Source: Vermamoeba vermiformis (taxonomy: Eukaryota). From it: a stretch of DNA of 64,000 bases. Shown piece by piece: positions 1,672 to 56,559 of the stretch. Numbering within the stretch: the first letter of the stretch is position 1; each line of letters opens with the position of its first letter. The notes below the pieces were generated by a model. It did not search any database and was not told the DNA's origin. It was given only the letters and a program-made list of their open reading frames with translations. The stretch spans positions 310,001-374,000 of the forward strand of contig JBEWZL010000066.1 in assembly GCA_045837725.1 (NCBI GenBank), in the 5' to 3' direction. A program made the translations under genes and the position numbers.

Positions 1672-4600
1672 TTACTCTTTAATGCCGACTTGATACAATA
1701 TCCAAGCATAGTACTCGGCACGTTCTTTCAACAAGTCATATCGACCTGATGCACCAAAGTGACCTTGCACCATTTCAGTCTTGATGAGCAGTTGATTGTT
1801 GTCAGTCTTCATCGTCCTCAGCTTGGCCACGTACTTGGCTGGTTCCCAGTACGCCACACGAGGATCATTAATGCCCGTGTTGATGTGAATGGCTGGGTAA
1901 TCAGTTTTGCGAATGTTGTCGTAGGGCGAATACGACAGCATATAGTGGTAGTACTGCTGGTCTTGAGGATTGCCTAATTAGGAAATGTCAGTCACGTGAT
2001 CGTTGTGAGTGCCAGCGTCTATCTTATACTCACCCCACTCCTCGTATTCGTTGACTGTCAATGGCAGTGATGGGTCCAACATGGTGTTGATCACATCGAC
2101 GAATGGAACACGTACCAGTGCGGCCTGTATTCGAGTTAGTATGCTTCATACGACCTCGTTGGTAAGTTGTAACACGTACTCGATACAGTTCTGGGCGCAT
2201 ATTCATCACGGCACAAATCAACAGACCACCTGCACTGCCACCTTGGATCACGAGCTTGTTCGATGAGGTGTATTTCTACACGTGGTATTTAGTATACTAT
2301 TGCCGTATGAGGCAGGTACTACTTACGTTTGTCAGTAAATATTCAGAGCAAGCAATAAAGTCGTAAAAAGTATTCTTCTTCTTCAACAGTTTGCCGTCTT
2401 CGTACCAAGATCTGCCCAACTCACCGCCACCTCTGTTCGATGTCGATTAGTTCACCAAGTATTAGAGAATTACCATACGTACCTAATGTGAGCATAAGCG
2501 AAGACAAATCCTCGATCAAGCAATGAGATCAAGTTCTCGTTGAAATCCGGATCGATCGAGACTTCATAAGCTCCATAACCGTACTAAAAATTATATTAGT
2601 ACCAATTTAAATATATATATATATGTAAAGTAATGTATGATCCCCTCTGAGCAATCAATCAACCATCATGTAACGACTGTGCTTTAGGACCACTCAAATA
2701 AATATCAACAAGCATGCAATGCGCTATTAATATCTATATCGACTTGATTGATATAGGAGATAACACCTTCTCGATGCACTCAAATGTTATGAGACAAGGA
2801 GGCCGTTTCTCCCTCAAAATAATTTGCGGATCTAACCATCAAGATCGGATCCAATTACTTAAATAGTACTATTAGTGTATACTTACCAGCATCATTGGGT
2901 TAGACCCGTCGTGTTTGAACAAGTCCTTGCGATAGACGAGCGAGATTGGTACTTTAACACCGTCGTGTGAGGGTGCAAACACACGAACAGTCTCGTACTT
3001 GGAGGCGTCATATCCGAGCACCGGCTGCGTCTTGACCACGTGTGTCTCGCGCGTGGACATGTTGTAGTCGATGACACTGCGCGGTGTGACCATGCTGCTG
3101 TACTTGAATCTATTGGCTCGTAATTAGCAAGGCTGTTCTAACGCGTCAAACTCATCACTCGACACGAGTGCACGTACCGGAACAGTTCCGTGTCGTATTC
3201 CAAATTAGTATCGGGCTCCAAACTGTACACTGTCTCGGAGTGCTTCACAGTGTGGATTTCACCTAAAGACAGCTCTTAGAACCAATCTCAAATTTAACAA
3301 ATTACTTTCATGTCTTACCAGTAGTCGTGTCCATGACGCGCAAATATTGCAAACCTCCCTCGCGCGTGAACAACTGCAAAGGTAGGTGATAAGGGAGATA
3401 TCTTTGGCAATACAATCGCAGCCAGTACGTACCACTAAGTGCTTCTTGAACACATTCATAATTTCAATCTTCACGCTCGGGTTGTGCGGCACCAACTCGC
3501 GCCACTTTGATCTGTCCTCGAACGAGTTCTAACAAATGACAGTCAGTGTCAGAACAACGACTTTGACACGTGTCAAACTAATAGTGTCAAATCTCGTGTC
3601 AAAATTACGTACCACATCAGTGATCATCACACGATTGTTGTGCGCCTCTTCATTGGTCAAGATAATAAAATGACCGTTTTGATGTTCGATTGTGTACTAT
3701 TATTGAAAAATTAAGGGTCAGATCTAGAGTCATATTAAGTAATGTCTTAAGCCTTACCTCTACATCTTGCTGTCTAGCGCGGAACAACTTAAAATTGCTG
3801 TTCTGCGGCACATCAGCATCGAGCACACGTATTTCAGTGGCAGTGCGGCTCATGCTTGCAATGAACACGTACTTGCCGTCTTGAGACTTGTACAGCTGCA
3901 CACGGAACTTCTCGTCCGTTTCTGAGAATTAAATAATATTAATACTGTATTAATAGTATTATTTATTCGACTTCGTACCAGTGTAGAGAAGCTCGTCGCT
4001 GGCTGAATCCGTTCCCAAAACATGTTTCCAGAGCTTGAAAGGACTAAAATAGCGATGTCAGGTAATAAATGGGTAATAAGAATATTTAAGCTCGAGATCG
4101 AAGTGTATGTACCAAAAGATCTATTAAGAAAAAACATACCGCTCAGCATGATCCATAGTAGTATAATATAAAGTCTTGTTATCATTGTTCCACTCTAATG
4201 AGCTCTCAGTATTCTCAATTCTGTCTTCAAAGACTTGACCAGTGGCCAGATCTTTGACTTGGACTTGAAACTTCTCTCGGCCAATGTAATCGACTGAATA
4301 AGCCAAGAACTTTTGATCCGGACTCAATTTAAGGAGGCCTAAGACACATGTTGTTTGATTCTTGGCTAATTCGTTCTGATCCAGTACCGGCTACAAAATG
4401 ATAAATAATGAGAATTAAATATGAGTTGATAGTAGTCTTACCTCTTCAGGTCCATTTAACCCTTTAGTGCGCGTTCTTATCTTATATTGAAGGCCTTCAA
4501 CGGTTTTAACGCTGCAGTATTGAAGTCAGTACGCGGATCTGAATTTTTGAAAAGATAATTCTACGTGCATGTAATAGTATTCTCCATTCTTATAAGGAGG

Positions 4601-5055
4601 CTCAACATCAGTTTCTTTAATTCTCGACACTAATTCTTTGTAAATTGTATCAGCTAGCGGCTTCTGTTCGGCGATCACATCTGGGATGCGAAAAGTGAGT
4701 TCATTTGCACGAATTAGTCTTAATTTAGTTGTAAAATAGAAAAATTACCAAGTCTATATTTGTTTTCGGCCTCTAGATAGTCCAACACCTCCTGATTGGT
4801 CTTGTCTCTGAGCCAAAAATACGGATCGTCATGTTTGTTTCCGTGGATGTCCCACAAATGCGACTTTTTGGCCGCAAGGGGTGGTTTAATAGTGTTCTCT
4901 GAATATGTAATCATGTTACTATGTCTGTTCGTCGTGTTTGTACTGTACAGCAAGATCGCTGCCAGCAAGATCAGCAGTGTCAAAATTAACTGTAGTTTGT
5001 CTATTTTAATAGTAATGCCAATTAGACATACTTTAAAATAATTTAGTAATTTCAT
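1672..5055 (-). CDS. Oligopeptidase B (S9A prolyl oligopeptidase family), multi-exon, with hydrophobic N-terminus
   Basis: N-terminal DDPYFWLRD, propeller [12 protein letters not shown], nucleophile GGSAGG, catalytic Asp in [12 protein letters not shown] and catalytic His in GHFGASGR. The ATG at 5055 is inferred. Confidence 0.9.
3562..3577. repeat. Palindrome TTTGACACGTGTCAAA, representative copy of a dispersed motif
   Basis: Perfect 16-bp palindrome inside an intron, with an identical 16-mer at 45922-45937. The 12-bp core also occurs at 7916, 11679, 13442 and 63414. Confidence 0.8.
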
Positions 5056-6087
5056 ATTTAGATTTAATAGCAAATAAAATTGAAAATAAATGCAAAAAAA
5101 TGTTGGATCTGACGTGGCACTGCCGAAATTTTGACGTATTAATATTGTTGCTCTATTATAGTGTACCTATTTTCGAAGTTGTACTGTACAATCGGTTTAT
5201 TGACAGATGTGTTGAATTTCGAGTGAGACCAGATCTTGCCCGAGAATTCAACTTGGTTCCAACAGGATTAATGCCTTGATAAAATAAGCTATTAGGTCGT
5301 ATTAATTTTTGTATGAGTTTAGCACAGGTGAAAGACATGTGGTTCTCCTAATAAAATAAATTGCTAATAATTACCAAAAAAATCTATTTCAAATTTAATT
5401 AACAGCTTCGCTGTGCCTGACCAAACGATAAATTTAGGTTAATTATTCAATAGTAATAGTGGCAGGGTAGAGTCTTGCTACAAGTGAAAAGTTAAAGCGT
5501 TTGGTGAATCCTCAACAAAATTTCCACCGTAACCGCGACAAATGCAAAGGTCATAATTAAAACGCGTACCTGTGTTATAGAATCAGTTAACAATGTTAAG
5601 AATTAACCAACAAAATCCTCACAAGACTTGGCGAAAAAGAAGGAGAAGAAGGACGCATTAATTTCAATAAGGCCAATTCAACTTAGAATCCACGACGTAA
5701 GGATGAAAGTCTTATAATGATATCTGAAGCTATATCTCTTAGCTGAAAAACAGAATATAATATAATCTTTTTTGGACTCATGTCTAGACACAAGTTCGGT
5801 CCAAACGTCCACGTCCAGTTCTCATGTTTTGTAACGATTTAATCTTCGATTATTTCGCAAAAACGAAATAGTGATTGCCATATTAGCACATTATAGCTTC
5901 CGCTACCACGTGCCCCGCAATATTTATTTCTTTTTAACTGCAGTTTGGGTGCAATTTCAAAGCTTTGAAACAACACCACTTGTTGTCAACACGCACTAGC
6001 AAGTCAAAGTGTTATCATAGCAGTGGTGCATTGATCATTTATTATTTGTTTCTTTCTATTTATTTGTTTAGTTTGACGCGATCATAG

Positions 6088-9000
6088 ATGCGTCTCAAAT
6101 CAAGCGGAATCGCTGTAATCGTGCTTATTGCACTATGCATATCATTAGTACAAGGTAAATACCAAGTAGAAGTTGCTAATAAGTCTTTTCTCGATTAATT
6201 AAATTACGCGGCTAATCCGATCGCACCATGAAATTAGTACTCATGACTTGTATTATAATAGGCCAGCGTACCTATACTAACTGCGTTTATCTGGACGGGC
6301 ATTCAAATATGCGCTTGTCATGGAATCTAACGGACACGGAGATATTAGGCTCGATTGAAGGCGATATTGGCGACGGCTGGATGGGTAAGCATACAATAAT
6401 ATTAAATAATTATTATTTGTCGATTTTTCCGTCTTCACGACAATTAATTTGGATCTACTTCAAAATAGCGTTCGGAATTGCTTTGGGGTCCGAATTCTAC
6501 ATGACTAGCGACGGACAGGGTACCGATGCTATCGTTGGTGCTATGCGTGACGACGGAGCATGCAATAATGGCTGCATTCGCGATTACTGGTAAATCCAGC
6601 TTTCTGTTGTAGCTTCTTTCGCAAAATTTTCAATTAGTTTCTCACTTCGCATTCATAAATAGGATTTATGCATATGCTACACCACGTCTGGATACTTCGC
6701 AAGATGTTCAGCTCGTTAGCGCGAATAGGACAGGCAACCACGTGACATTACATTTCAGACGTTTGTTGAACACTAATGATACTGCTGAGGACCGCGTAAG
6801 TCGATATTAGATGAACAAGAACTATATATTATAGCCAGGCTCATATACATACAAAATTTCCTTATTGGGATCTTGTTCCCTTTTGGGGATAGCGATCGAG
6901 ATCTTCAGCTAATTAAGATGAAATTAGGCAATTAATACGACAATTCAACGCATTAACTGGGCGTATAACACCAATAAAGATGCCCTCAATAGCAACGGTA
7001 CTCTAATGATGCGCCATGAAAATCAAGGCACTTTGTTGCTGAACTTGACTGCGCCATGTAAGGACTTATTAATGCCGATTATAAGCACCATAATTAATAC
7101 TAATATAATGTAGCGCAATGCGTGCTTCAAGCTCAAACAACTACCTTCACCAATCACGACGGCAATTATCGTGCCTCATGGGTCATCGATCAGACAGCAG
7201 GCACCATCACTGTCACTGCTAAAGCTAAGACTAAAGGTACGCATATACCAAATAAGGAAATAATTTTAAAATTAACATTATCTCGCATAGGCTGGGTCAG
7301 TTTTGGATTTAACACCAAGCCAGGCATGACTGGTGGTGACGTCATTGTCGGTACGTTGCATTCATTTCCAAGCAATAAATGAGACTCACACAGCGTGTTA
7401 CATCTAGGCTGGATCGGCCCTAACAACAGCACTGTCGTGACTGATCGGACAGCAGTCAAAGAAGAGTTGCCCGTGCTCGACACTTCGCTGCCGAACGGTG
7501 CTAATGACGTGACTAACGCGCAGGCTTACACTGAAGTGATTGACGGCGCTACATTCACCGTGATTGTGTTCACGCGTCAGTTAGTCACCAATGATCCCAA
7601 CGACATTGCATTGATTGACGGTGACGCCACACCAACCTACTTGATGTGGGCGTATGGTGGCGATGCCTCTGTGCACGGCGATAAATTTGATCAAGTAAGT
7701 TATCTCGCGAAGAAAGTGCCTAAAGATCGCTATATTAATTCATCATAGCACGTGGACGCTGGCTCAGAACAAATCAACTTCTTCGACGGTTGTATTGCTG
7801 CCCCTCGTTTGATGGGTTTCGCTCTTGAAAAGGCTCACGGCATGTTGATGGTGATTGGCTGGTTCTGCTTCTTGCCCATTGGTACGTATTACTTTGTTGA
7901 AGTAACCAAACTCGTTGACACGTGTCACTTCAGGCATGTTCGCCTCGCGCTACATGAAGACCATGACACCGCGCTGGTTCCCCACACACGTCGCCCTGCA
8001 GACTATTGGTGTGGCCATGATCATCGTCAGCTTCATCATTATTGTCGTTGAACACAGCGGTGCTATTCATGTGGGCTTGCATCAGATCGTTGGTGTCATT
8101 GTGTTTGGATTGACACTTTCCTTGCCTCTGTTGGGCATTATTGCTGACAGAATGTTCGATCCTAAACGCAAGTCTGCTCCTGTTTTCCCCGATCAGGTAC
8201 GCACATTGCCCATTATTGAAAGTTCCAGTCGGATCTAACTTAATGCAGCTCCACTGGTGGATCGGTCGCCTTACCTTCTTGGGTGCCATTGTCAACGTGT
8301 TCTTTGGTATCTGGGAGTTCTCAGTCTATTCAATTCTGCTCTGGGTCTTCGCTGCTGCATGGCTCATTCTCACTCTCGTCGTGCTCATCGTGCAAGAACG
8401 ACGTGTCGGTCAAACACACGAACAAGACTACAAAGAAATTGAAATCAAGAGTGACTCTGAAAGCAGTGCCTCTAGTACGTGAAATCAATCCCTACTTGTT
8501 TCCACTGGATCTAATTTATTCACAGCACTCACTTCCAGCAAGCGCACGTTGAACAAAGTAGAACAAAAGAACAACTTGAACACTTTCATCGTGTACATTG
8601 TGTAAGTATAATAGTGGGTCGTTGATTAGTACAATAATAATTAACGTGCAACACTAGTTTGAGCGCTGCACTCGTCTTAGCCTTCTGCGTGGTGCTTGGC
8701 ATAACCCAACCTTTTGGACACCGTCTGTTCGATAGTAAGTCGTATCCTAATTTCGCAAACATGATACTAATAGGCTGCTAGCTGACGGTCAGTTGTGCAT
8801 GAGATTTGACAAGTACCAAGTTAAGCCCGTTGAAACTGCTTACGTTTGCCGGTAAGTTCTGTCGCTGATTATATTTGGCTTATACTATGTGCCTAATTAT
8901 CTCGCAGTGGTTTTATGTTCCCGCAAGATCGTCCCTATCACGTGCTCAAATTCGAACCTATTCTCGACAACCCAGCCTACGTGCATCACATGATCTTGTA

Positions 9001-9991
9001 TTCTGTGCCCGAGTACGTGGACAAAGAGTACTTCTCGTGCGGTGAAACTCCTCCTGGCGCATTCCCGCTGTACGCTTGGGCTGTGGGCATGGACACATTT
9101 GAAACACCCGAGAACGTTGGCTTTAGAGTCGGACGAGGTACGCCACTAAATGAATCCCATCATATATAGTCCGCTCATATCTTATTACTAGATGCTGTCA
9201 CGCAATACATTGTGCTCGAGATTCATTACAACAATCCCGAAAAGACCTCTGGCATTGTTGACTCATCTGGTGTGCGCATGACCATGACAGCGGATCTGAG
9301 ACCCATCGATGCAGGTATCTTCGTGCTCGGTGTTGATACTGGCAGCATCAATATCCCTGCTAACACCGACATCTACGAGGTAAGACATAATTTATTTAAA
9401 AAGACTATTAAACAGAAAGGGCTACTAACAGCATTGTAGATGACATCAACGTGCGGTGCCAAACAAACCAACAGTTTGCCGCCTGCCAACAAAGTCAATG
9501 CCCTGGTCGATGACTACGTTATCTTCAGCTCGGGGTCTGCACATGCATCAACATGGTCGCCAGATTTACACTGAACAATTCAGGTACGTTTGACACGCGT
9601 CAAACTGTCACTTTGACACGCACACTAACCAATTCCACAGAGACAACCAGAAGATTGGTGATGTTGGCTGCAATGACTACTTTGACTTCCAACGTCAGAA
9701 ATTTACACCAGTCAATGTGACTCTCAAGCCCGGTGACCAGTTCATCACGCACTGTATTTGGAACACTACTGGCTCGGACCAGAATGTTAAAGGCTGCGAG
9801 TCGACCTCGTGCGAAATGTGCCTCAATTACATTGCTTATTACCCACAAATCCCTGGTGGTATGTACCAATCGTATTCTTTGTAATATTGTACTTGAGGTA
9901 ACTCATCTTGCGTGTAGGTGGTGGCAGTTGCGTCGGCAAACCAACCGCAGTGGACAACCCCGTAAGACGACAAAACTGTCCCGCAAACTAA
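6088..9991 (+). CDS. Signal peptide + 2x DOMON + cytochrome b561 + extra TM helix + copper type II ascorbate-dependent (DBH/PHM-like) monooxygenase fusion
   Basis: By-eye splicing gives one frame. It runs MRLKSSGIAVIVLIALCISLVQG; DOMON1 (FYMTSD...MRHENQG); DOMON2 (PGMTGGD...DQHVDAG); b561 His motifs AHGMLM, WFPTHVALQ, LHQIVG, LHWWIG; then CuH VHHMILY and LEIHYNN, CuM HMHQHG and CEMC. One extra G at about 9532-9535 breaks the frame. Confidence 0.85.
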
Positions 9992-10152: not shown

Positions 10153-11926
10153 ATGGATGTAAGATTTAAAGGCATATCTCGTTTTGATTTTGTTCACTAA
10201 CCGCGGATTTAGACGTTTGAGCCCATCGTTGAAGTATGCAGCCATGTCATTGAGGTGGAATTTCATGTATATATGTACCATATATTTGAGAAAGCAGGTA
10301 AGACACGACTTTTTTAAAATAACGGTAACGATCCCGCTCAAATTTTTAACCTCTTGTATCATAATCGATTGCATCAAAAATTACACGCCAAAATTACATT
10401 GCTTTTTATAAGCCACGGAGAGTAATTATCGACGTTCAATTTCAATTTAGTGATCCGGTCTGAAATTGCCAAGCGATTCAGTTTCACAATCTCATTGCAT
10501 CTTAATAGGTTACAAATTACATACTGTAAGAAACCCCACTCGAGACGATTATACACAATTGCCCTGCGAAAGTGTCGATCTAACGTTGATCAAACAAAAC
10601 GGGGACACAATAACGTAAGTATAACCACTTCTAAAGGCTATACTAAGTGTTATCTTTTTATAGACGCAAAGACGTTATTCCTGAAGCCTACTCAAATTGC
10701 CTCGACTTTTATGTACTGGATTTACCTCAACCAGCCTTCTTCCCCTCTTATTGGTGCCATACTTTATCCCCCAATGGTGTCGTATTAAAACAAGTAGTAT
10801 TTCAAACACTCGACAATCGCACCAAACTGCCATTCACGATGATTATTCCAGATTTTATGTTGAGGTACGCATTCGAGTCACATCCGCCCTTCATTAACCA
10901 TTTCACCTTGAAGTATTGAACTCGATGAAGTGAGAGCAGTTGAGTGGCGTACAGGACGTGGCCGTGAGTACCGTGTTGATTTTGTATCGATTCCAGATTT
11001 CATTCAACGACAACGACTGTACTCTCCGCTGGCAGCCAACAACACTGAGGAAAAACAGAACGAGAAATCACGTGCTCAACCGATCATCACCGACAAGATT
11101 GTGGACTTGAGACCCATTTGCCCACGCATATTCAATCAGGGCGATCTCGGCACTTGTGGCGTCACTAACTTCACCTCGTTGATCGAGTGGACCACGGGTA
11201 AATATCACAAAATATTACACGACTCCAGCATTAATGACACAAAATTTGTCACAGGCAAGAAGCTGTCCGTGCTGTTTTTGTACTGGAACACGCGTGTCAA
11301 AGTCGACAATCAACTGCACTACGATGACAGTGGTTCGGAGTATGACTCGATGATGAAAGCTGTCTTCGACTACGGCTTGTGCTCGGATGAGTTGTGGCCC
11401 TACAACACGGTCAAGTTCTTGGAAGAGCCTCCTAAAGAAGGTACGTATAAAGGTCCACGTGTCACGCAACGATGTACTAATGCTATCCATCTATTAGCTT
11501 ACGAAGAGGCTGAAAAGTGGATCAAATTCAAGCCCGAACAATTTCACGCACTTTCAACGCTCGATGAGATTAAACAAAGCTTGCGTCAGAAGCGACCAGT
11601 GCTCGCTGACATTATGTTTGGAGGTGAAGCTTATTGCAAGGGCGTGACGCGATCAGGACAAGTAAGTTGAACTTAATATGACACGTGTCATTGAGCATTC
11701 TAATCTGACACTTTGACAGGTGCCAAACATGCCACACGACAGCGTGGTAGTTGACAGCAACGAACACTCGTGTCTGATTGTCGGGTACAACGATGAGACC
11801 GCACAACTGATCATTCAGAACAGTTGGGGTACTGGTTGGGGTGTCGGTGGCTTTGGTTACGTGCCTTATGAGTACATTTTGACCAAACACTTCACGCACT
11901 TGACCACTTGGAATCCAGAACAATAA
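10153..11926 (+). CDS. Papain-family (C1A) cysteine peptidase with N-terminal extension and no obvious signal peptide
   Basis: Catalytic motifs VDLRPICPRIFNQGDLGTC (Gln/Cys), NEHSCLIVGY (His) and IQNSWGTGWGVGGFGY (Asn). Upstream exons splice in frame back to the ATG at 10153. Confidence 0.85.
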
Positions 11927-11995
11927 GCCAAGCGGACCTATTTTGTATTTGTATTGTAATAAAAGTATTGATTTCTTACGGCCAGTGAGATTTAT

Positions 11996-48538: not shown

Positions 48539-51500
48539 TTAAGATCTCAATTCGTCATAAGCGAACTTGAGCTCGTGCAACAATGGTGCAGGGAATTCTT
48601 TGCCTAAAGTGCTGTAGTATCTCTTGATATCTTCGAATTCCTTAGTCCATTCATCAACATCAACCTGCAAGGCCTCATCAACGCTGCTTGTAGGCACATC
48701 AAGTCCACGCAAGTCGAGCACGGAGGACTCGGGAATCAAGCCGATAGCAGTCTTGTGCAAGCCCTCAGTGAGGGTGTTGGTGGTTCGTTCGTGAATGTAC
48801 TTCAAGATACGCGAGTTCTCGTCGAAACCAGGCCACAAGAAGTTACCCTTCTTGTCCTTTCTGAACCAGTTGACCACAAAGATCTTAGGCATGTTGTAAC
48901 CCAACTGCACTCTGAAGTCGAGCCAGTGTTGCAAGTAGTGGTTGATGTTGTAGCCGAGGAAAGGAGTCATTGAGAACGGTTCACGTTCAACGCCGTTCTT
49001 GCCTTCGACACCAATGACTGAGGCCAAGAAGACACCTTGTTCCCAGTTAGCAGCTTCAGTGACCAAGGGGAAGGCAGTGCTGCGACGGCAACCAAAGATG
49101 AAAGCAGAGATTGGCACACCGTTAGGGTTCTCCCATTCAGGATCAATCACAGGGCATTGAGCGCCAGGAGCAGTGAAGCGAGAGTTGGGGTGAGCAGCAG
49201 GGCGTCCGCAGTCAGGAGTCCACTTTTGACCAGTCCAATCGACCAAGGAAGCAGGAGGTTGTTCAGTCATGCCCTCCCACCAGACATCACCGTCGGGGGT
49301 AACAGCGACGTTGGTGAAGATGGTGTTCTTGCGCAAAGTGGCCATGGCAGACTTGTTGGTCTTGTCAGAGGTACCAGTAGCAACGTCGTAGAAGCCAGCC
49401 TCAGGGTTGATGGCCCAGAGTCTGCCGTCGTCGCCCAAGTGCAACCAAGCAATGTCGTCACCAACGCAACGAACGGTCCAACCAGGAATAGTCGGGACCA
49501 ACATGGCAAGATTGGTCTTACCACAGTTCTTGGGCAAAGCAGCACCGACGTAGATACGCTTGCCTTCAGGGGAAGTGATGCCCAAAATAGCGCAACGTTC
49601 AGCGAACCAACCCTGCTTCTTGCCCATGACAGAGGCAATGCGAACACCGAAGGAGATACGAGAGACAAGGGCGTTAGAACCGAAGCCACTGCCGTAAGAC
49701 ATGACGCTGTAGTTGTCAGTCTCGGTGTCAACAAAGTGAGCGATGACTCTGTTGTCAGGGTTGCAAGGCCAAACAACGTCCTTTCTGGCCAGACTCGAGA
49801 GGAGCACCAACCGAGTGGACGCAAGGCAAGAAGTATTGAGTGTCCTTCAACACGTTCAATACATCAGTGCCCATGCGAGTTTGGACGCGCATGTTGGCCA
49901 CAACGTAGGGCGAGTCAGTGATTTGAACACCGAATCGTGAGTATTGAGAGCCAAGAGGACCCATGCAGAATGGCATGATGTACATGGTACGGCCCTTCAT
50001 GCAGCCCTTGTAGAGGGTCATCATCTTCTCCTTCATCTCCTTAGGATCGGCCCAGTTGTTGACAGGACCAGCCTCCTCAGGAGTCTTGGTGCAGATGTAA
50101 GTGCTGGCGTCAGTGCGGGAAGTGTCGCGAGGATCAGTGCGAACAACGAAGCTGTTAGGTCTCAAGTCGTCGTTCAATCTGTTCATCGTGCCCTTCTCGA
50201 CCATCATGTCGCACAATTGGTCGTACTCTTCTTGTGAGCCAGTGCACCAGTGGACGTGATCGGGTTGCAAGAGAGCTTGCATTTCATCAACCCACTTGAC
50301 GAGCTTGTGGTTGCTAGTAGGAGCAGCAGTAGCAGCCAACAATCTAGCCTCGAGTTCGTCAACGTTGCTAGCGATGGCAGCAGGAAGTCTGGAGCCGAAC
50401 TTGGCGTAGAATTGACGAATATCGGGAATTTCGTCGAGCCACAACTTGGCGTCGACGTGCAAGAGCTTGTGAATGGTGTCCTTGCCAATTTCCAAACCAT
50501 CAACGTCCAAAGCGTCGTGAGTAGGAACGTAGCCGATAGGAGTAGCACGAGCCTTGCCAGTACCATCGACACGCTCGCAGATCCACTTCAAGACACGGCA
50601 GTTCTCGCCAAAACCAGGCCACAAGAACTTGCCCTTCTCTTTCTGGAACCAATTGACGTAGAAGATCTTAGGAGACAAGAAGCCCAAGTTCTTTCTGAAC
50701 TCAGTCCAATGAGCAAAGTAGTCTCCCATGTTGTAACCGCAGAAAGGCAACATCGCAAATGGATCACGACGGACTTGACCAAGCTTGCCTTCAGCAGCGG
50801 CTGTTTGTTCAGATGAGATGATTGAACCCATGAAGACACCTTGTTCCCAAATGAAGGCTTCAGTGACCAAAGGAACGACGCGTTCACGACGACCACCGAA
50901 CAAGATGGCGCAAATGGGGACACCATTAGCGTTCTCCCACTCAGGATCAATCACAGGGCATTGAGAAGCAGGGCAGGTGTAGCGAGAGTTGGGGTGAGCA
51001 GCAGGACGTCCGCAGTCAGGAGTCCACTTTTGACCAGTCCAGTCAATCAGCTCAGCAGGAGGTTGTTTAGTCATGCCTTCCCACCAGACATCACCGTCAG
51101 GAGTCAAACCGACGTTGGTGAAGATGGTGTTTCTGTTGATGGTTTGCATGGCAGAAGCGTTGGAGATGGAAGAGGTACCAGGAGCGACACCGAAGAAACC
51201 ATTCTCAGGGTTGATGGCGTACAATCTGCCGTCATCACCGACGTGTAACCAAGCAATATCGTCACCAACGCAGCGAACTGTCCAGCCAGGAAGTGTGGGC
51301 ACCAACATAGCAAGATTGGTCTTGCCACAAGCTGAAGGGAATGCGGCGGCGATGTAGTACTTGTTGCCTTGAGGAGAGGTCAAGCCCAAGATCAACATGT
51401 GCTCGGCCAACCAGCCTTCTTTTCGGCCCAAAGTAGAAGCGATACGCAAAGAGTAGCACTTCTTGCCGAGCAGAGCGTTACCACCATAGCCACTACCGAA

Positions 51501-54500
51501 CGACATTACTGTCGGGTCTTCAGGGAAGTGAGCGATGACAGTGTTGTCAGGATCGCAAGGCCATTGGACATCCTTCTCGCCAGCCTTGAGAGGCTTGCCG
51601 ACAGAGTGCAAGCAAGGCAAGAAGAACTTGCTTTCGTCCATAATGTTGAGGACCTTGATACCGATACGGGTCATGATCTTCATATTCACGACGACGTAAG
51701 GAGAGTCGGAGATCTCGACACCAAACTTGGAGTAAGGCGAACCGATGGGACCCATGCAGTAAGGAATGACGTACATCGTACGACCCTTCATGCATCCGTC
51801 GAACAACTTGTTCAAACGTTCCTTCATCTCCTTAGGATCAGCCCAGTTGTTGGTCGGTCCAGCGTCGTCCTTGTCCTTCGTGCAAATGAAGGTCTTGGAC
51901 TCGACACGAGCAACGTCGCGAGGATCAGAGCGAGCCAAGTAGCAGTTGGGCTTGTACTTGGGGTTGAGAGCAGTGAAGGTGCCTTGCTTGACCATCAAGT
52001 GGCACATTTCGTCGTACTCTTCTTCAGTACCAGTGCACCAGTGAACACGGTCAGGCTTGGTCATAGCACGAACTTGCTCGACCCATTCAATCAACTTCTT
52101 GTTGTTAGTTGGAGGTGGGTGTTCAGTACCGATCTTCAATCTCTTCTCCAACTCGAACATTTCTTGCATCAACGATTGAGGAATGCGAGTTCCGAAAGTA
52201 GCGTAGAAGTTGCGAATAGACTCAATTTCTTGCATCCATTCTTGGCATTCGACTTCAGTCAACTTGGCGAGGGCGGAGTCAGTGATATCCAAACCGCTAA
52301 CATCGAGAGAGTCGATAGTGGGCACGTGACCGATGGGAGTTCTGGTGCTCTTGGAAGTCGGGTTACGACCAATACGACCGCAGATCCATTTCAAGACACG
52401 GGAGTTTTCACCAAAGCCAGGCCACAAGAATTGACCGTTCTCGTCCTTTCTGAACCAGTTGACGTAGAAGATCTTAGGACTGTTGTAACCAGTGAATTTT
52501 CTGAAGTCCAACCAGTGCTTGAAGTAGTCTGCCATGTTGTAACCGCAGAAAGGCAACATCGCAAATGGATCACGACGAACTTGACCAAGCTTGCCTTCAG
52601 CAGCAGCTGTTTGTTCAGATGAGATGATTGAGCCCAAGAAAACACCGTGTTGCCAAGTGAAGGCTTCGAGAACGAGAGGAACCAAAGAGTTACGGCGACC
52701 TCCGAAGATGATTGCGGAGACAGGAACACCGTTGGGGTTCTCCCATTCAGGATCAATCACAGGGCATTGAGCAGCGGGAGTGGTGTAACGAGAGTTGGGG
52801 TGAGCAGCGGGGCGGCCACAGCCAGGAGTCCACTTTTGACCGGTCCAATCGATTAACTCAGCAGGAGGCTGCTTGGACATGCCTTCCCACCAGACATCAC
52901 CGTCAGGGGTCAAACCAACGTTGGTGAAGATAGTGTTCTTCTTGATGGTTCTCATAGCAGAGCTGTTGGTGTGTTCTGAAGTACCAGGAGCGACACCGAA
53001 GAAACCGTTCTCAGGGTTGATGGCACGGAGAGTACCATCGTTAGCGACGTGCAACCAAGCAATATCGTCACCAACGCAGCGAACTGTCCAACCAGGAAGT
53101 GTGGGCACCAACATAGCAAGATTGGTTTTGCCACAAGCTGAAGGGAATGCAGCGACGACGTAATGTTTAGCACCTTGAGGCGAAGTCAAGCCCAAGATCA
53201 ACATGTGTTCAGCCAACCAGCCTTCTTTTCGGCCCATAGTTGAGGCAATACGCAAAGAGTAACACTTCTTGCCGAGCAGAGCGTTACCACCATAGCCACT
53301 ACCGAATGACATAACTGAAGGTTCTTCAGGGAAGTGAGCAATGACAGTGTTGTCGGGGTTGCAAGGCCAAGAAACGTCTTGTTGTCCAGGTTGCAAAGGA
53401 GAGCCGACGGAGTGCAAGCAAGGCAAGAAAGCTTGATCACCCATGTAAGTCAAGACCTTGGTACCAATACGGGTCATGATCTTCATGTTCACGACGACAT
53501 AAGGAGAGTCGGAGATTTCGACACCATAGCGAGAGTAGGGAGAGCCAAGAGGACCCATGCAGTAAGGAATGACGTACATTGTACGACCCTTCATGCATCC
53601 GTCGAACAACTTGTTCAAACGTTCCTTCATTTCTTGCGGATCCATCCAGTTGTTGGTTGGTCCGGCGTCGTCCTTGGTCTTGGAGCAGATCCAAGTCTTG
53701 GACTCGACACGAGCAACGTCGCGAGGATCAGAGCGAGCCAAGTAACTGTTAGGTCTGAGTTGGTTGTTCAAAGGAATGAAAGTGCCTTGTTGAACCAAAA
53801 GCGAGCACATTTCGTCGTATTCAGCTTCAGTACCAGTGCACCAATAGACGCGATCCGGCTTGGTCATCTTGCGGACTTGATCGACCCAAGTAACCAAAGC
53901 CCTGTTGGTAGTGGGGACTTGGTCTTCATCCAAATGCAATAATTTGTCTTGTCTCTCCAATTGCTCGTAGAGAGCGGTAGGAACCTTGTGACCGAGAGTG
54001 GAAAAGAAGTTTTTGATTTGAGGAATCTTGCGCAAGAAGAGGTCTCTGTCGACATTGAAGAGCTTGGAAAGAGTATCCACGGAGACTGAAAGACCAGAGG
54101 TATCGAAAGAGCGGATGGTAGGGACGTAGCCAATGGAAGTTCTCTTCGCATCCACTTCACCGTCAATTCGACGGAAGACCCACTTGAAAATGCGCGAGTT
54201 CTCTCCGTAACCAGGCCACAAACGCTTGCCGTTGTCTTGTCTGAACCAGTTCACGACGAAAATCTTTGGGCTGCGAGAAAATACCAGTCGATTAATAACG
54301 CGTCGAAATTTCCGTGGATAGATAGTAAAAATTAGGTTAAAGAGACATACCTGCTGTAACCCAAGAACTCTCTAATCTTAAACCAATGCGAAATGTGGTC
54401 ACCAATGTTGATGCCAGTATAGTTTGACATAGCAAACGGATCTCGATGTTCAGGGACAGTTGTTCCCATAGCCTCGTGTTCATCGACAGCCAAGGTGGAG

Positions 54501-56559
54501 CCCCAGAAGACACCGTGCTTCCAGTTAAAAGCTTCGTATATTAAGGGGTACGTCTCTCTTCTGCGGACACCGAAAACGATGGCAGAAATGGGAACTCCGT
54601 TAGGGTTTTCCCACTCTGAATCAACGACGGGGCATTGAGCCATAGGGCACGTGTAGCGTGAGTTGGGGTGAGCAGCAGGACGACCGCAGTCAGGAGTCCA
54701 CTTTTGACCAGTCCAGTCAATAAGAAGTGGAGGAGGATTGCGTGTCATGCCCTCCCACCAAACGTCACCTTCAGGAGTCAAGGCGCAGTTAGTGAAGATA
54801 GTGTTTCGTTGAATGGTGTCCATAACACCTCTGTTGCTGTAATCGGAAGTGCCTGTATTACAGTAATTCAATTAGTTTTTGTGTGACGAATTCGAATTGT
54901 TGCAAAGTATTGACATACCAGTGGCAATGCCAAAGAAACCAGTCTGTGGGTTGACACCGTAAAGACGGCCGTCGTCACCAACGTTCAACCAAGCAATTTC
55001 AGTGCTGACGCAGCGTTGAGTCCAACCGGGCAAAGTAGGCACCAAGAATGACACGCTAGTTTGACCAGTACCGGCAGGCATGCAAGCGCAAACGTATTTC
55101 TTTTGTCCTTCGGGAGATTTCAAGGCAATGATCGACGAATGAGAAGCCAAAAACTTGGGATTTGACTTGGTCAAGGCAGATCCCATTCGTAAGTTGAGTG
55201 AACGACGAAGCAAAAATCCAAAAGCGGTACCGAAGCCCATCATGTGAGGAATAGGATCATCGGGGAAGTGCGCGAGCCAAACGTTGTCCGGGCTGCAAGG
55301 CCATGGGACGTCGCGTTGGCCGAAGTACAAAGGCATACCGACTGAGTGCAATGAAGGCATGAAAGGTTCATCTTCGCCCATAAGATCTAATACCTATCAT
55401 TTTATGCGTCAATAATTTTATCGGCGCAGTTTTACTGTCACGTTATGAAAATTATTCGGAACTTTTTGCCAGATTCATTCACTAAACAATTCAAAATTTC
55501 TAATATTGGAGTACTTACTCTAGTTCCAACGCGCGCTACTGTTCGTACGTTCATTACGACATAAGGTGAATCAGTAGCGATGACGCCAAACTTGCTCCAT
55601 TGAGATCCGAGTGGTCCCATGCAGAACGGAACAATATACATTGTTCTGCCTTGCATAGAGGCATGGAATAATTTTTCTAATTTAGCCTTCATCTCGTTAG
55701 GCTCCATCCAGTTATTCGTTGGGCCGGCATCTTCTTTGTTATTTGAGCAAATAAAAGTTCTCTCGTCGTACTTGCTGAGATCTCGCGGGTCTGTTCGAGC
55801 CAAGAAAGATCCTGGTCTTAATTTAGGATTGAGGCGAATAAATGTGCCATTCTCGACCATTTTGTTGCAGAGCGTATCTCCTTCTTCTTTGGATCCGGTG
55901 CACCAGTAGACCTGATCGGGCTCGCAAAGCTTTCTTACTTTCTCAACCCATGTGAGTAATTTTACGTGACTAGTAGGAGGTAGTTCCGATTTAGCCCTAT
56001 TGAGATCCGACATCCGTTAGTTTTATGCATCCAACCAAACACGGCGTTTTAATCAAGAATAATTGCTTGATACGTGACAATTTATTTACTGCTCAAAGTC
56101 TTAAAAAGGGACTTCCATAAATACCGTCCACGCGAAGTTTCTACTTGGCAATCTTTTCCACCCGAAGAAAATTATTTTAGGCCAAAATCCTTCGCAAATC
56201 CTATTTAATCAAGGGACGCTGGATCAGATCAAAAGATTTGCACCTTTCCGCGCAGATCCGCAGCGTTCTTGAATGGGACGGATTCGCGAGACGATAGGCC
56301 AAAAGTAACTTTGCAAGAAATTGAAACTTTCTTGAACAGAAAAATATGCCGAAGTAGGGTCACGTAATGGTATAAATGATCGTCTAATAAGTAAAAGAGG
56401 AACTGATTGAAAAATTTCGGATCAATTTTCGAAAACGGTAACTATTGTAAACAATTCCAATGAGCGCGATTGTGCTTACCCTTTGCTGGCCTGAGTACGC
56501 GGAGACACTGCCTCGGGCTGGGGGATATTTAAAGAGATAGTAACCTTTGGTTGGTCCAT
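48539..56559 (-). CDS. Giant GTP-dependent phosphoenolpyruvate carboxykinase with four tandem PEPCK units (about 2,400 aa)
   Basis: Exon 1 (56559-56480, [10 protein letters not shown]...) splices in phase to 55996. Three more introns follow, then one exon of about 5.7 kb. There are four copies of the HPNSR / NWF / WPG.GEN scaffold. Units 2 and 3 have [25 protein letters not shown] and VGDDIAW. One extra A near 49782. Confidence 0.92.
50320..53920 (-). repeat. Internal tandem duplication (period about 1.8 kb) between PEPCK units 2 and 3
   Basis: Identical nucleotide blocks include 51778-51827 = 53581-53630. Near-identical blocks lie at about 51254 vs 53060 and about 50727 vs 52533. Confidence 0.9.

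Follow-up and report, generated by a model that had tools for sequence, protein, structure and literature searches.

Whether one amoebal protein could supply the electrons for its own copper monooxygenase is the question raised by a gene at positions 6088–9991 (+ strand) of a 64,000-nucleotide stretch of Vermamoeba vermiformis DNA (assembly GCA_045837725.1, contig JBEWZL010000066.1, positions 310,001 to 374,000), hereafter the window. An earlier note, made from the letters of this stretch, had proposed that two DOMON domains, a cytochrome b561 and a copper monooxygenase are joined here, with the whole electron chain in one polypeptide. We confirmed that the DOMON-DOMON-b561-helix 6-copper monooxygenase fusion is real. 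One spliced transcript encodes a single chain that has both copper sites (CuH and CuM) and four sites predicted to bind b heme, and its DOMON and copper domains are non-cytosolic. The anatomy, the conservation among Amoebozoa and the repeated occurrence of such fusions all support the proposed chain, and from these we infer self-reduction. Our preferred reading, to which we assign a probability of about 0.6, is that the protein would be a self-sufficient, membrane-embedded type II copper monooxygenase in which electrons pass from the cytosol through the hemes to copper within one chain, with no need for a separate system that recycles ascorbate.

The gene model has 19 exons and 18 GT-AG introns of 47–132 nucleotides (nt), with a GC content of 49% in exons versus 34% in introns. 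The frame is open from the ATG at 6088 to a run of G at 9533–9536; shifted by one base, it continues to the stop at 9989–9991, for a total of 913 amino acids (aa). EukProt holds a complete V. vermiformis transcript open reading frame (ORF) of 917 aa, P0002, to which the window model was compared. The features are as follows.

6088–9991 (+): whole gene, 913 codons read through the G run; residues 2–913 are 85% identical to P0002.
6088–6263 (+): predicted signal peptide, aa 1–23, interrupted by intron 1; hydropathy peak of 2.38 at aa 3–21.
6276–7047 (+): DOMON 1, heme type, with M75 at 6501 and H178 at 7015; Pfam match, and structure model against the cytochrome domain found in cellobiose dehydrogenase (CDH), Z score 15.6.
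7137–7784 (+): DOMON 2, heme type, adjoining the membrane domain, with M245 at 7326 and H349 at 7749; Pfam match and conservation.
7809–8404 (+): cytochrome b561 core, helices 1–5, with His codons at 7836, 7987, 8080 and 8252; Pfam and structure matches.
8405–8575 (+): Ser-rich, charged cytosolic loop containing the disputed intron; predicted local distance difference test (pLDDT) below 50 at P0002 residues 539–571, and charge count.
8475–8525 (+): intron of 51 nt that removes the apparent stop at 8480–8482.
8576–8706 (+): helix 6, which returns the chain to the luminal or extracellular face and is split by an intron at 8602–8657; hydropathy 2.98, model helix 571–600.
8793–9295 (+): copper monooxygenase N-terminal domain (CuH), His-His at 8984–8989 and His at 9224; PF01082, alignment to DBH 4zel with E 7e-39.
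9302–9922 (+): copper monooxygenase C-terminal domain (CuM), His-x-His at 9540–9548 and Met at 9816; PF03712, match to PHM with Z 29 and root-mean-square deviation (rmsd) 2.9.
9533–9536 (+): G run that shifts the frame in the assembly; one base fewer in three of four runs, one run ambiguous, orthologues open.

Public sequencing runs were used to determine whether the 8482 stop is intronic and whether splicing continues in frame through helix 6 into the monooxygenase, as the earlier note had claimed. Part of the stretch occurs in 20 public runs, four of which were examined (X2, X3, X5 and X8). X3, X5 and X8 are presumed to be RNA, and their contigs lack introns; X2 is a DNA run without such joints. 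A 51-base skip over the 8482 stop is listed in X3 and X8, with the tool placing the skip one base leftward. One spliced X3 contig covers 7933–9857, and one spliced X5 contig covers 7410–9379, its length of 1548 letters being equal to the summed exon lengths expected. Since single spliced contigs span both parts, the b561 and monooxygenase exons lie on one transcript in X3, X5 and X8. All 15 of the joints listed, from a total of 19, agree with the model introns in length and place, and a set of donor, branch and acceptor signals like that of the 8475 intron was found at none of 2652 coding positions in a control. Both claims therefore stand, and P0002 is fused in a single ORF as well. Most differences between strains leave the protein unchanged, in the front half and in the monooxygenase alike. 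The 40 rows shown include 34 exonic places; the front half has 19 synonymous and 3 nonsynonymous differences and the monooxygenase 11 and 1, so that 30 of the 34 are silent.

These data also bear on the possibility that two adjacent genes, or a pseudogene, were misread as a fusion. That explanation could draw on the 8482 stop if the intron is ignored, on the assembled frameshift ahead of CuM, and on X5, which has no listed missing base at the G run. Against it, spliced contigs cross the junction (8400–9000) in all three RNA-like runs, and relatives hold complete fused ORFs. The monooxygenase also lacks an independent start, because the sole ATG between 8480 and 8800, at 8761, is intronic and is followed by a stop six codons later. 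Two separate genes are thus ruled out for the lineage, and we give the explanation as a whole next to no credence.

The earlier note had allowed for a real frameshift at the GGGG near 9533 that would remove CuM. The G run is one base shorter in X3, in X8 and in the DNA run X2; P0002, P0003 and P0012 read through the site, and the genomic loci L010 and L011 align over it in one frame. From these runs, orthologues and loci we conclude that the gene is intact in the lineage. X5 is ambiguous: its depth at the G run is 4.25, and the deletion is not among the rows listed (22 further rows are not shown). Equal "side" lengths were dismissed as evidence on X5, as they appear to count reference positions. 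The frameshift in the window is quite probably an assembly error; possibly the strain from which the window comes carries a null allele.

A Pfam scan of the window exons recovered DOMON, Cytochrom_B561 (weakly on a single exon, E 0.004), Cu2_monooxygen and Cu2_monoox_C, in that order; all four families exceed the gathering cut-off in P0002. The metal ligands that the note had listed were all located. In the window model these are M75/H178 in DOMON1, M245/H349 in DOMON2, H378/H411/H442/H482 in the b561, H656/H657/H718 at CuH and H803/H805/M876 at CuM. The CuH triad aligns with its DBH and PHM counterparts. The CuM ligands lie 3' of the G run and are in frame in three of four runs and in the orthologues.

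An AlphaFold2 model of P0002 (mean pLDDT 83) consists of two beta-sandwiches, six long helices, a disordered loop at 539–571 and a two-domain core. The core superposes on that of PHM (Z 29.3, rmsd 2.9 over 287 residues); together with PF01082 and PF03712, both above cut-off, this is the two-domain PHM/PNGase F fold. The DOMON part matched the cytochrome domains of pyranose dehydrogenase (Z 15.8) and CDH (Z 15.6), and the membrane part matched the b561 structures of plant 4o6y (Z 13.8) and human Dcytb 5zle (Z 13.4). No solved chain among the structure matches listed spans both halves. Two helices come after the helix with the fourth His in 27 of 30 family rows, and the monooxygenase consequently stays on the DOMON side of the membrane. 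The note's argument that, with six helices, DOMON and copper domains share one face of the membrane is supported by transcripts, orthologues and the structure model; helix 6 was dismissed as evidence of design for fusion, since it is present in unfused relatives.

We compared the fusion with the known systems that it resembles. It shares its catalytic core with PHM and PAM, but no PAL domain was detected by Pfam. The Arg that in PHM stands two positions ahead of the first CuM His and binds the peptide carboxylate is Gly in the window, and Arg is found at this position in none of 30 rows. With Arg and PAL missing, we rejected a PAM-like amidating enzyme, and the resemblance of the core at the CuM strands to DBH rather than PHM makes peptide amidation unlikely. 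With DBH, tyramine beta-hydroxylase and MOXD1/MOXD2 the fusion has in common the core of CuH (three His) and CuM (two His and Met) and a DOMON in the chain; its best sequence match in the PDB is DBH (4zel, E 7e-39). However, the single DOMON of DBH lacks heme ligands and abuts the core, which is followed by some 100 residues forming a dimerisation domain (PMC4846438). In the fusion, a six-helix cytochrome lies between the DOMONs and the core, both DOMONs have heme ligands, and a tail of about 22 residues ends the chain.

The membrane half is that of a CYBDOM protein (plant HYP1/CRR, animal FRRS1/SDR2, insect CG8399): one or more extracellular DOMONs with Met/His ligands, then a b561 with four His in helices 1–4, and an even number of helices, six in the model; heme binding is predicted. 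The CYBDOM proteins described in the papers searched reduce external Fe(III) or Cu(II) and have no catalytic domain, whereas in the fusion helix 6 is followed by a complete dicopper monooxygenase, in addition to DOMON and b561. Both modules are well known, and their union is undescribed in the literature searched, though earlier DOMON/b561 surveys may show it.

To determine how widely the fusion occurs, we searched with P0002 and retained the best 150 of 6755 matches as 50%-identity representatives; 227 proteins were scanned with profiles for domain order. The order DOMON(s)-b561-monooxygenase was present in 42 of the 227 scanned rows, some of them redundant or partial, and in 25 of the best 150 representatives. 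Named members come from Vermamoeba, Nolandella, Physarum, Phalansterium and Vermistella, which we take to span the main amoebozoan lineages. Pfam independently detected the b561 in 19 of 23 fusions tested, and the four missed ones retain all four His. The locus is one member of a widespread family, unannotated in public proteomes, rather than an isolated case, and six helices are ordinary for CYBDOM proteins and occur in unfused relatives too. A profile search from an eight-row alignment yielded no further named fused member. In the ESM Atlas (clusters of at least 50 members) no listed cluster had both the b561 and the monooxygenase families; all matches were below 0.9 and fell to ordinary DOMON-monooxygenase and CYBDOM clusters. 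Pattern scans, which are insensitive and do not prove absence, gave 4 candidate stretches in prokaryote genomes and 24 in viral contigs, none of them confirmed.

Thirty of the 42 fused rows were aligned, and conservation was counted over the rows covering each site. The heme ligands hardly vary, and most copper ligands are kept. The four b561 His are present in 28/28, 30/30, 30/30 and 30/30 rows, the DOMON2 Met and His in 26/26 and 27/27, and those of DOMON1 in 15/18 and 21/21. CuH ligands are kept in 27/29, 28/30 and 28/30 rows and CuM ligands in 28/30, 28/30 and 23/26; all 12 tested sites are intact in 18 of the 22 rows covering them. A Cys-x-x-Met-Pro motif in the CuH domain (P0002 position 681) has Met in 24 of 30 rows and another residue in the Vermamoeba proteins; this Met is a possible pocket residue or extra metal ligand.

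Under the preferred reading, a cytosolic one-electron reductant, most likely ascorbate, would reduce the cytosolic b561 heme (H411/H482), and the electron would traverse the membrane to the outer heme (H378/H442). It would then pass to the DOMON2 heme (M245/H349), next to the heme of DOMON1 (M75/H178) and finally to CuH, while CuM would bind O2 and hydroxylate a C-H bond in some small substrate of the lumen or surface, of a DBH/MOXD-like type rather than a glycine-extended peptide. The DOMON domains may act as mobile shuttles, like the same fold in cellobiose dehydrogenase. Precedents are found in the literature. In plant HYP1, electrons of cytosolic ascorbate cross the membrane to Fe(III) or Cu(II), and three hemes are modelled as the conduit (PMC10784544). 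In DBH, CuH is the electron-transfer site, and two ascorbates furnish the electrons (PMC4846438). The CDH cytochrome domain, which has the same Met/His heme fold, passes single electrons to LPMO, also a copper oxygenase (PMC10726044); that system differs in comprising two separate soluble proteins, in drawing electrons from a flavin and a sugar, and in its unrelated monocopper acceptor. The donor is probably ascorbate, because GULO, the final enzyme of ascorbate synthesis, is present in Amoebozoa (PMC4396506).

Several observations weigh against self-reduction or qualify its support. The predicted template modelling (pTM) score of the P0002 model is only 0.64, and the model lacks the DBH arrangement of DOMON and core (rmsd 18.6 over 428 residues to 4zel_A). 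The window's frame, as assembled, ends at codon 814, without CuM. Dictyostelium lacks GULO (PMC4396506), and the ascorbate contacts modelled in HYP1 (Arg at −7 and Asn at −3 from the fourth His) are unmatched by position. CYBDOM proteins have an even number of helices in any case, six being standard (PMC10691727), so the topology allows self-reduction but is no evidence for it. CuH ligands are lost in Physarum P0021 and P0160 and CuM ligands in P0108 and P0118, with heme ligands kept apart from the DOMON1 Met of P0021; in P0086 and P0088 the CuM Met is missing, which may reflect gene-calling errors. Among close relatives, P0027/P0063, P0083, P0085, P0093 and P0099 are DOMON-DOMON-b561-helix 6 proteins without a monooxygenase, ending about 20–30 residues past helix 6 (some may be truncated), and P0113, P0138 and P0168 are DOMON-monooxygenases without a b561. 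As close relatives carry either half alone, the halves can work apart.

Three side observations concern the same proteins. P0021 (Physarum polycephalum) has Ser-Asn in place of the CuH His-His and lacks the DOMON1 Met, while its CuM, DOMON2 and b561 ligands are intact; if real, it is a natural test of whether heme can replace CuH. Most six-helix stand-alone relatives carry a Cys near the point where the fusion's monooxygenase starts; loss of the enzyme probably gave rise to these relatives, some of which may be truncated. The family has a conserved cytosolic Arg (22/29 and 22/30 rows) and Trp (29/29).

The separate halves are also what would be expected if the fusion were a tether. The CYBDOM half would then re-reduce a diffusible mediator (monodehydroascorbate or a quinone) beside the enzyme, the mediator would reduce the copper, and fusion would merely fix stoichiometry and place, with reduction as in chromaffin granules. 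Such an arrangement equals the known one of DBH and b561 (PMC10691727). A complex prediction of the two DOMONs with heme against the copper domains, made without the supplied alignment, gave a score of 0.08 and a mark of 0.34 and weighs neither for nor against a tether. Against a tether, the DBH DOMON is described as without heme ligands (PMC4846438), whereas both DOMONs here keep them. The DOMON of soluble DOMON-monooxygenases resembles DOMON1, and DOMON1 clusters loosely with the DOMONs directly before copper domains in these relatives, away from DOMON2 (Shimodaira–Hasegawa-like approximate likelihood ratio test, SH-aLRT, 91). We consider a tether unlikely, though it is the strongest competitor to self-reduction.

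The members without copper ligands (P0021, P0160, P0108 and P0118), which retain heme ligands, are of the kind expected if the b561/DOMON half reduced Fe(III) or Cu(II) at the surface or in the phagosome, for metal uptake or for loading copper into the attached domain, and supplied no catalytic electrons. The characterised CYBDOM proteins are ferric and cupric reductases (PMC10784544), and copper sites are labile in DBH (PMC4846438). Both copper sites are nevertheless complete in most members (18/22), the stand-alone six-helix relatives could serve as the reductase, and repeated joining to one enzyme class is unexpected for general metal uptake. We regard this role as improbable.

The same anatomy (a cytosolic donor, a two-heme membrane core and an external O2-binding metal) would in principle permit an uncoupled transmembrane oxidase, in which electrons passed on by copper turn O2, inside the phagosome or at the surface, into peroxide or radicals, with no specific hydroxylated product, and which might kill prey bacteria or cross-link the cyst wall. 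The full DBH-like fold, with the CuM Met and the following Asn-Tyr retained as in DBH, argues against it. DBH and PHM enzymes are tightly coupled, which also counts against such an oxidase, and we hold it to be very improbable.

Fusions in the reverse order, with the monooxygenase before the b561, were found in 5 of the best 150 representatives: DOMON-monooxygenase-DOMON-b561 in Coleochaete (P0115), with P0133, P0189 and P0194 similar, and temptin-monooxygenase-b561 in P0170. Monooxygenase-domain trees were calculated under LG+G4 with a quick search from 39 rows chosen after viewing a larger FastTree phylogeny, and constrained trees were compared with approximately unbiased (AU) tests. The tree constraining all fusions into one clade was rejected (p-AU 1.7e-6), as was the tree constraining the five reverse-order sequences (p-AU 1.1e-5). 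The tree constraining the b561-first set was not rejected (p-AU 0.63). The backbone is weakly supported. Because single clades are rejected, at least three fusion origins, or repeated loss of the b561, are indicated; repeated fusion in turn indicates functional coupling.

A wider reading is that, throughout the MOXD-type branch, the DOMON serves through its heme as a port for electrons from a CYBDOM partner, the two having been fused on at least three independent occasions and being separate elsewhere, with the ascorbate-fed DBH and tyramine beta-hydroxylase, whose DOMONs are heme-less, as the derived exception. We put this forward tentatively and with some doubt. In proteins classed as unfused, 79 of the 90 DOMONs immediately preceding the copper core keep Met and His (within one residue), although two proteins in this set are probably missed fusions. 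Those that keep the pair include the animal MOXD1 homologues P0040 and P0044; both named tyramine beta-hydroxylases (P0036 and P0049) lack it. The retention in 79 of 90 suggests heme-mediated reduction as the general state of the MOXD branch, and such retention may already appear in the 2007 DOMON survey. If the wider reading is true, assays of orphan enzymes such as MOXD1 may have failed for want of a heme or a reducing partner, which suggests how orphan MOXD enzymes could be assayed. A single construct of the fusion would let both the reduction of CuH by DOMON heme and the coupling of b561 and monooxygenase be addressed. As a copper counterpart, the single-chain fusion would be analogous to self-sufficient P450 fusions. 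Judging from the sequences, amoebae may retain a conserved surface or vesicle hydroxylation chemistry.

Three further sequences from these searches are of note. P0031 is an unfused V. vermiformis DOMON-monooxygenase with a signal peptide, a C-terminal anchor and the DOMON Met/His. A seawater metagenome contig (L003:5057-8550) matches DOMON1 and the b561-to-monooxygenase part of P0002; since the latter match is an alignment of 483 columns in one frame, intron-poor marine members exist. P0182, of 2531 aa, has twelve DOMON-like repeats and then a b561 domain.

No biosynthetic or pathway cluster hinting at a substrate was found among the neighbours in the 64-kb window. The fusion gene is flanked by a divergent prolyl oligopeptidase (S9) family gene (~4100–5170, −) and, downstream, by a papain-family protease gene (~10900–11930, +); farther away are an ABC-2 transporter, ribosomal protein L3, a kinase, ankyrin and kelch proteins, and VPS13. 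At 48542–56016 (−) lie tandem units of GTP-dependent phosphoenolpyruvate carboxykinase (PEPCK), where the GC content is raised to 49–52%. A stop-free frame at 49758–54371 (1538 aa) has three PEPCK_N and three PEPCK_GTP matches, with more units in flanking ORFs; a polyprotein, a tandem array and an assembly artefact are all conceivable.

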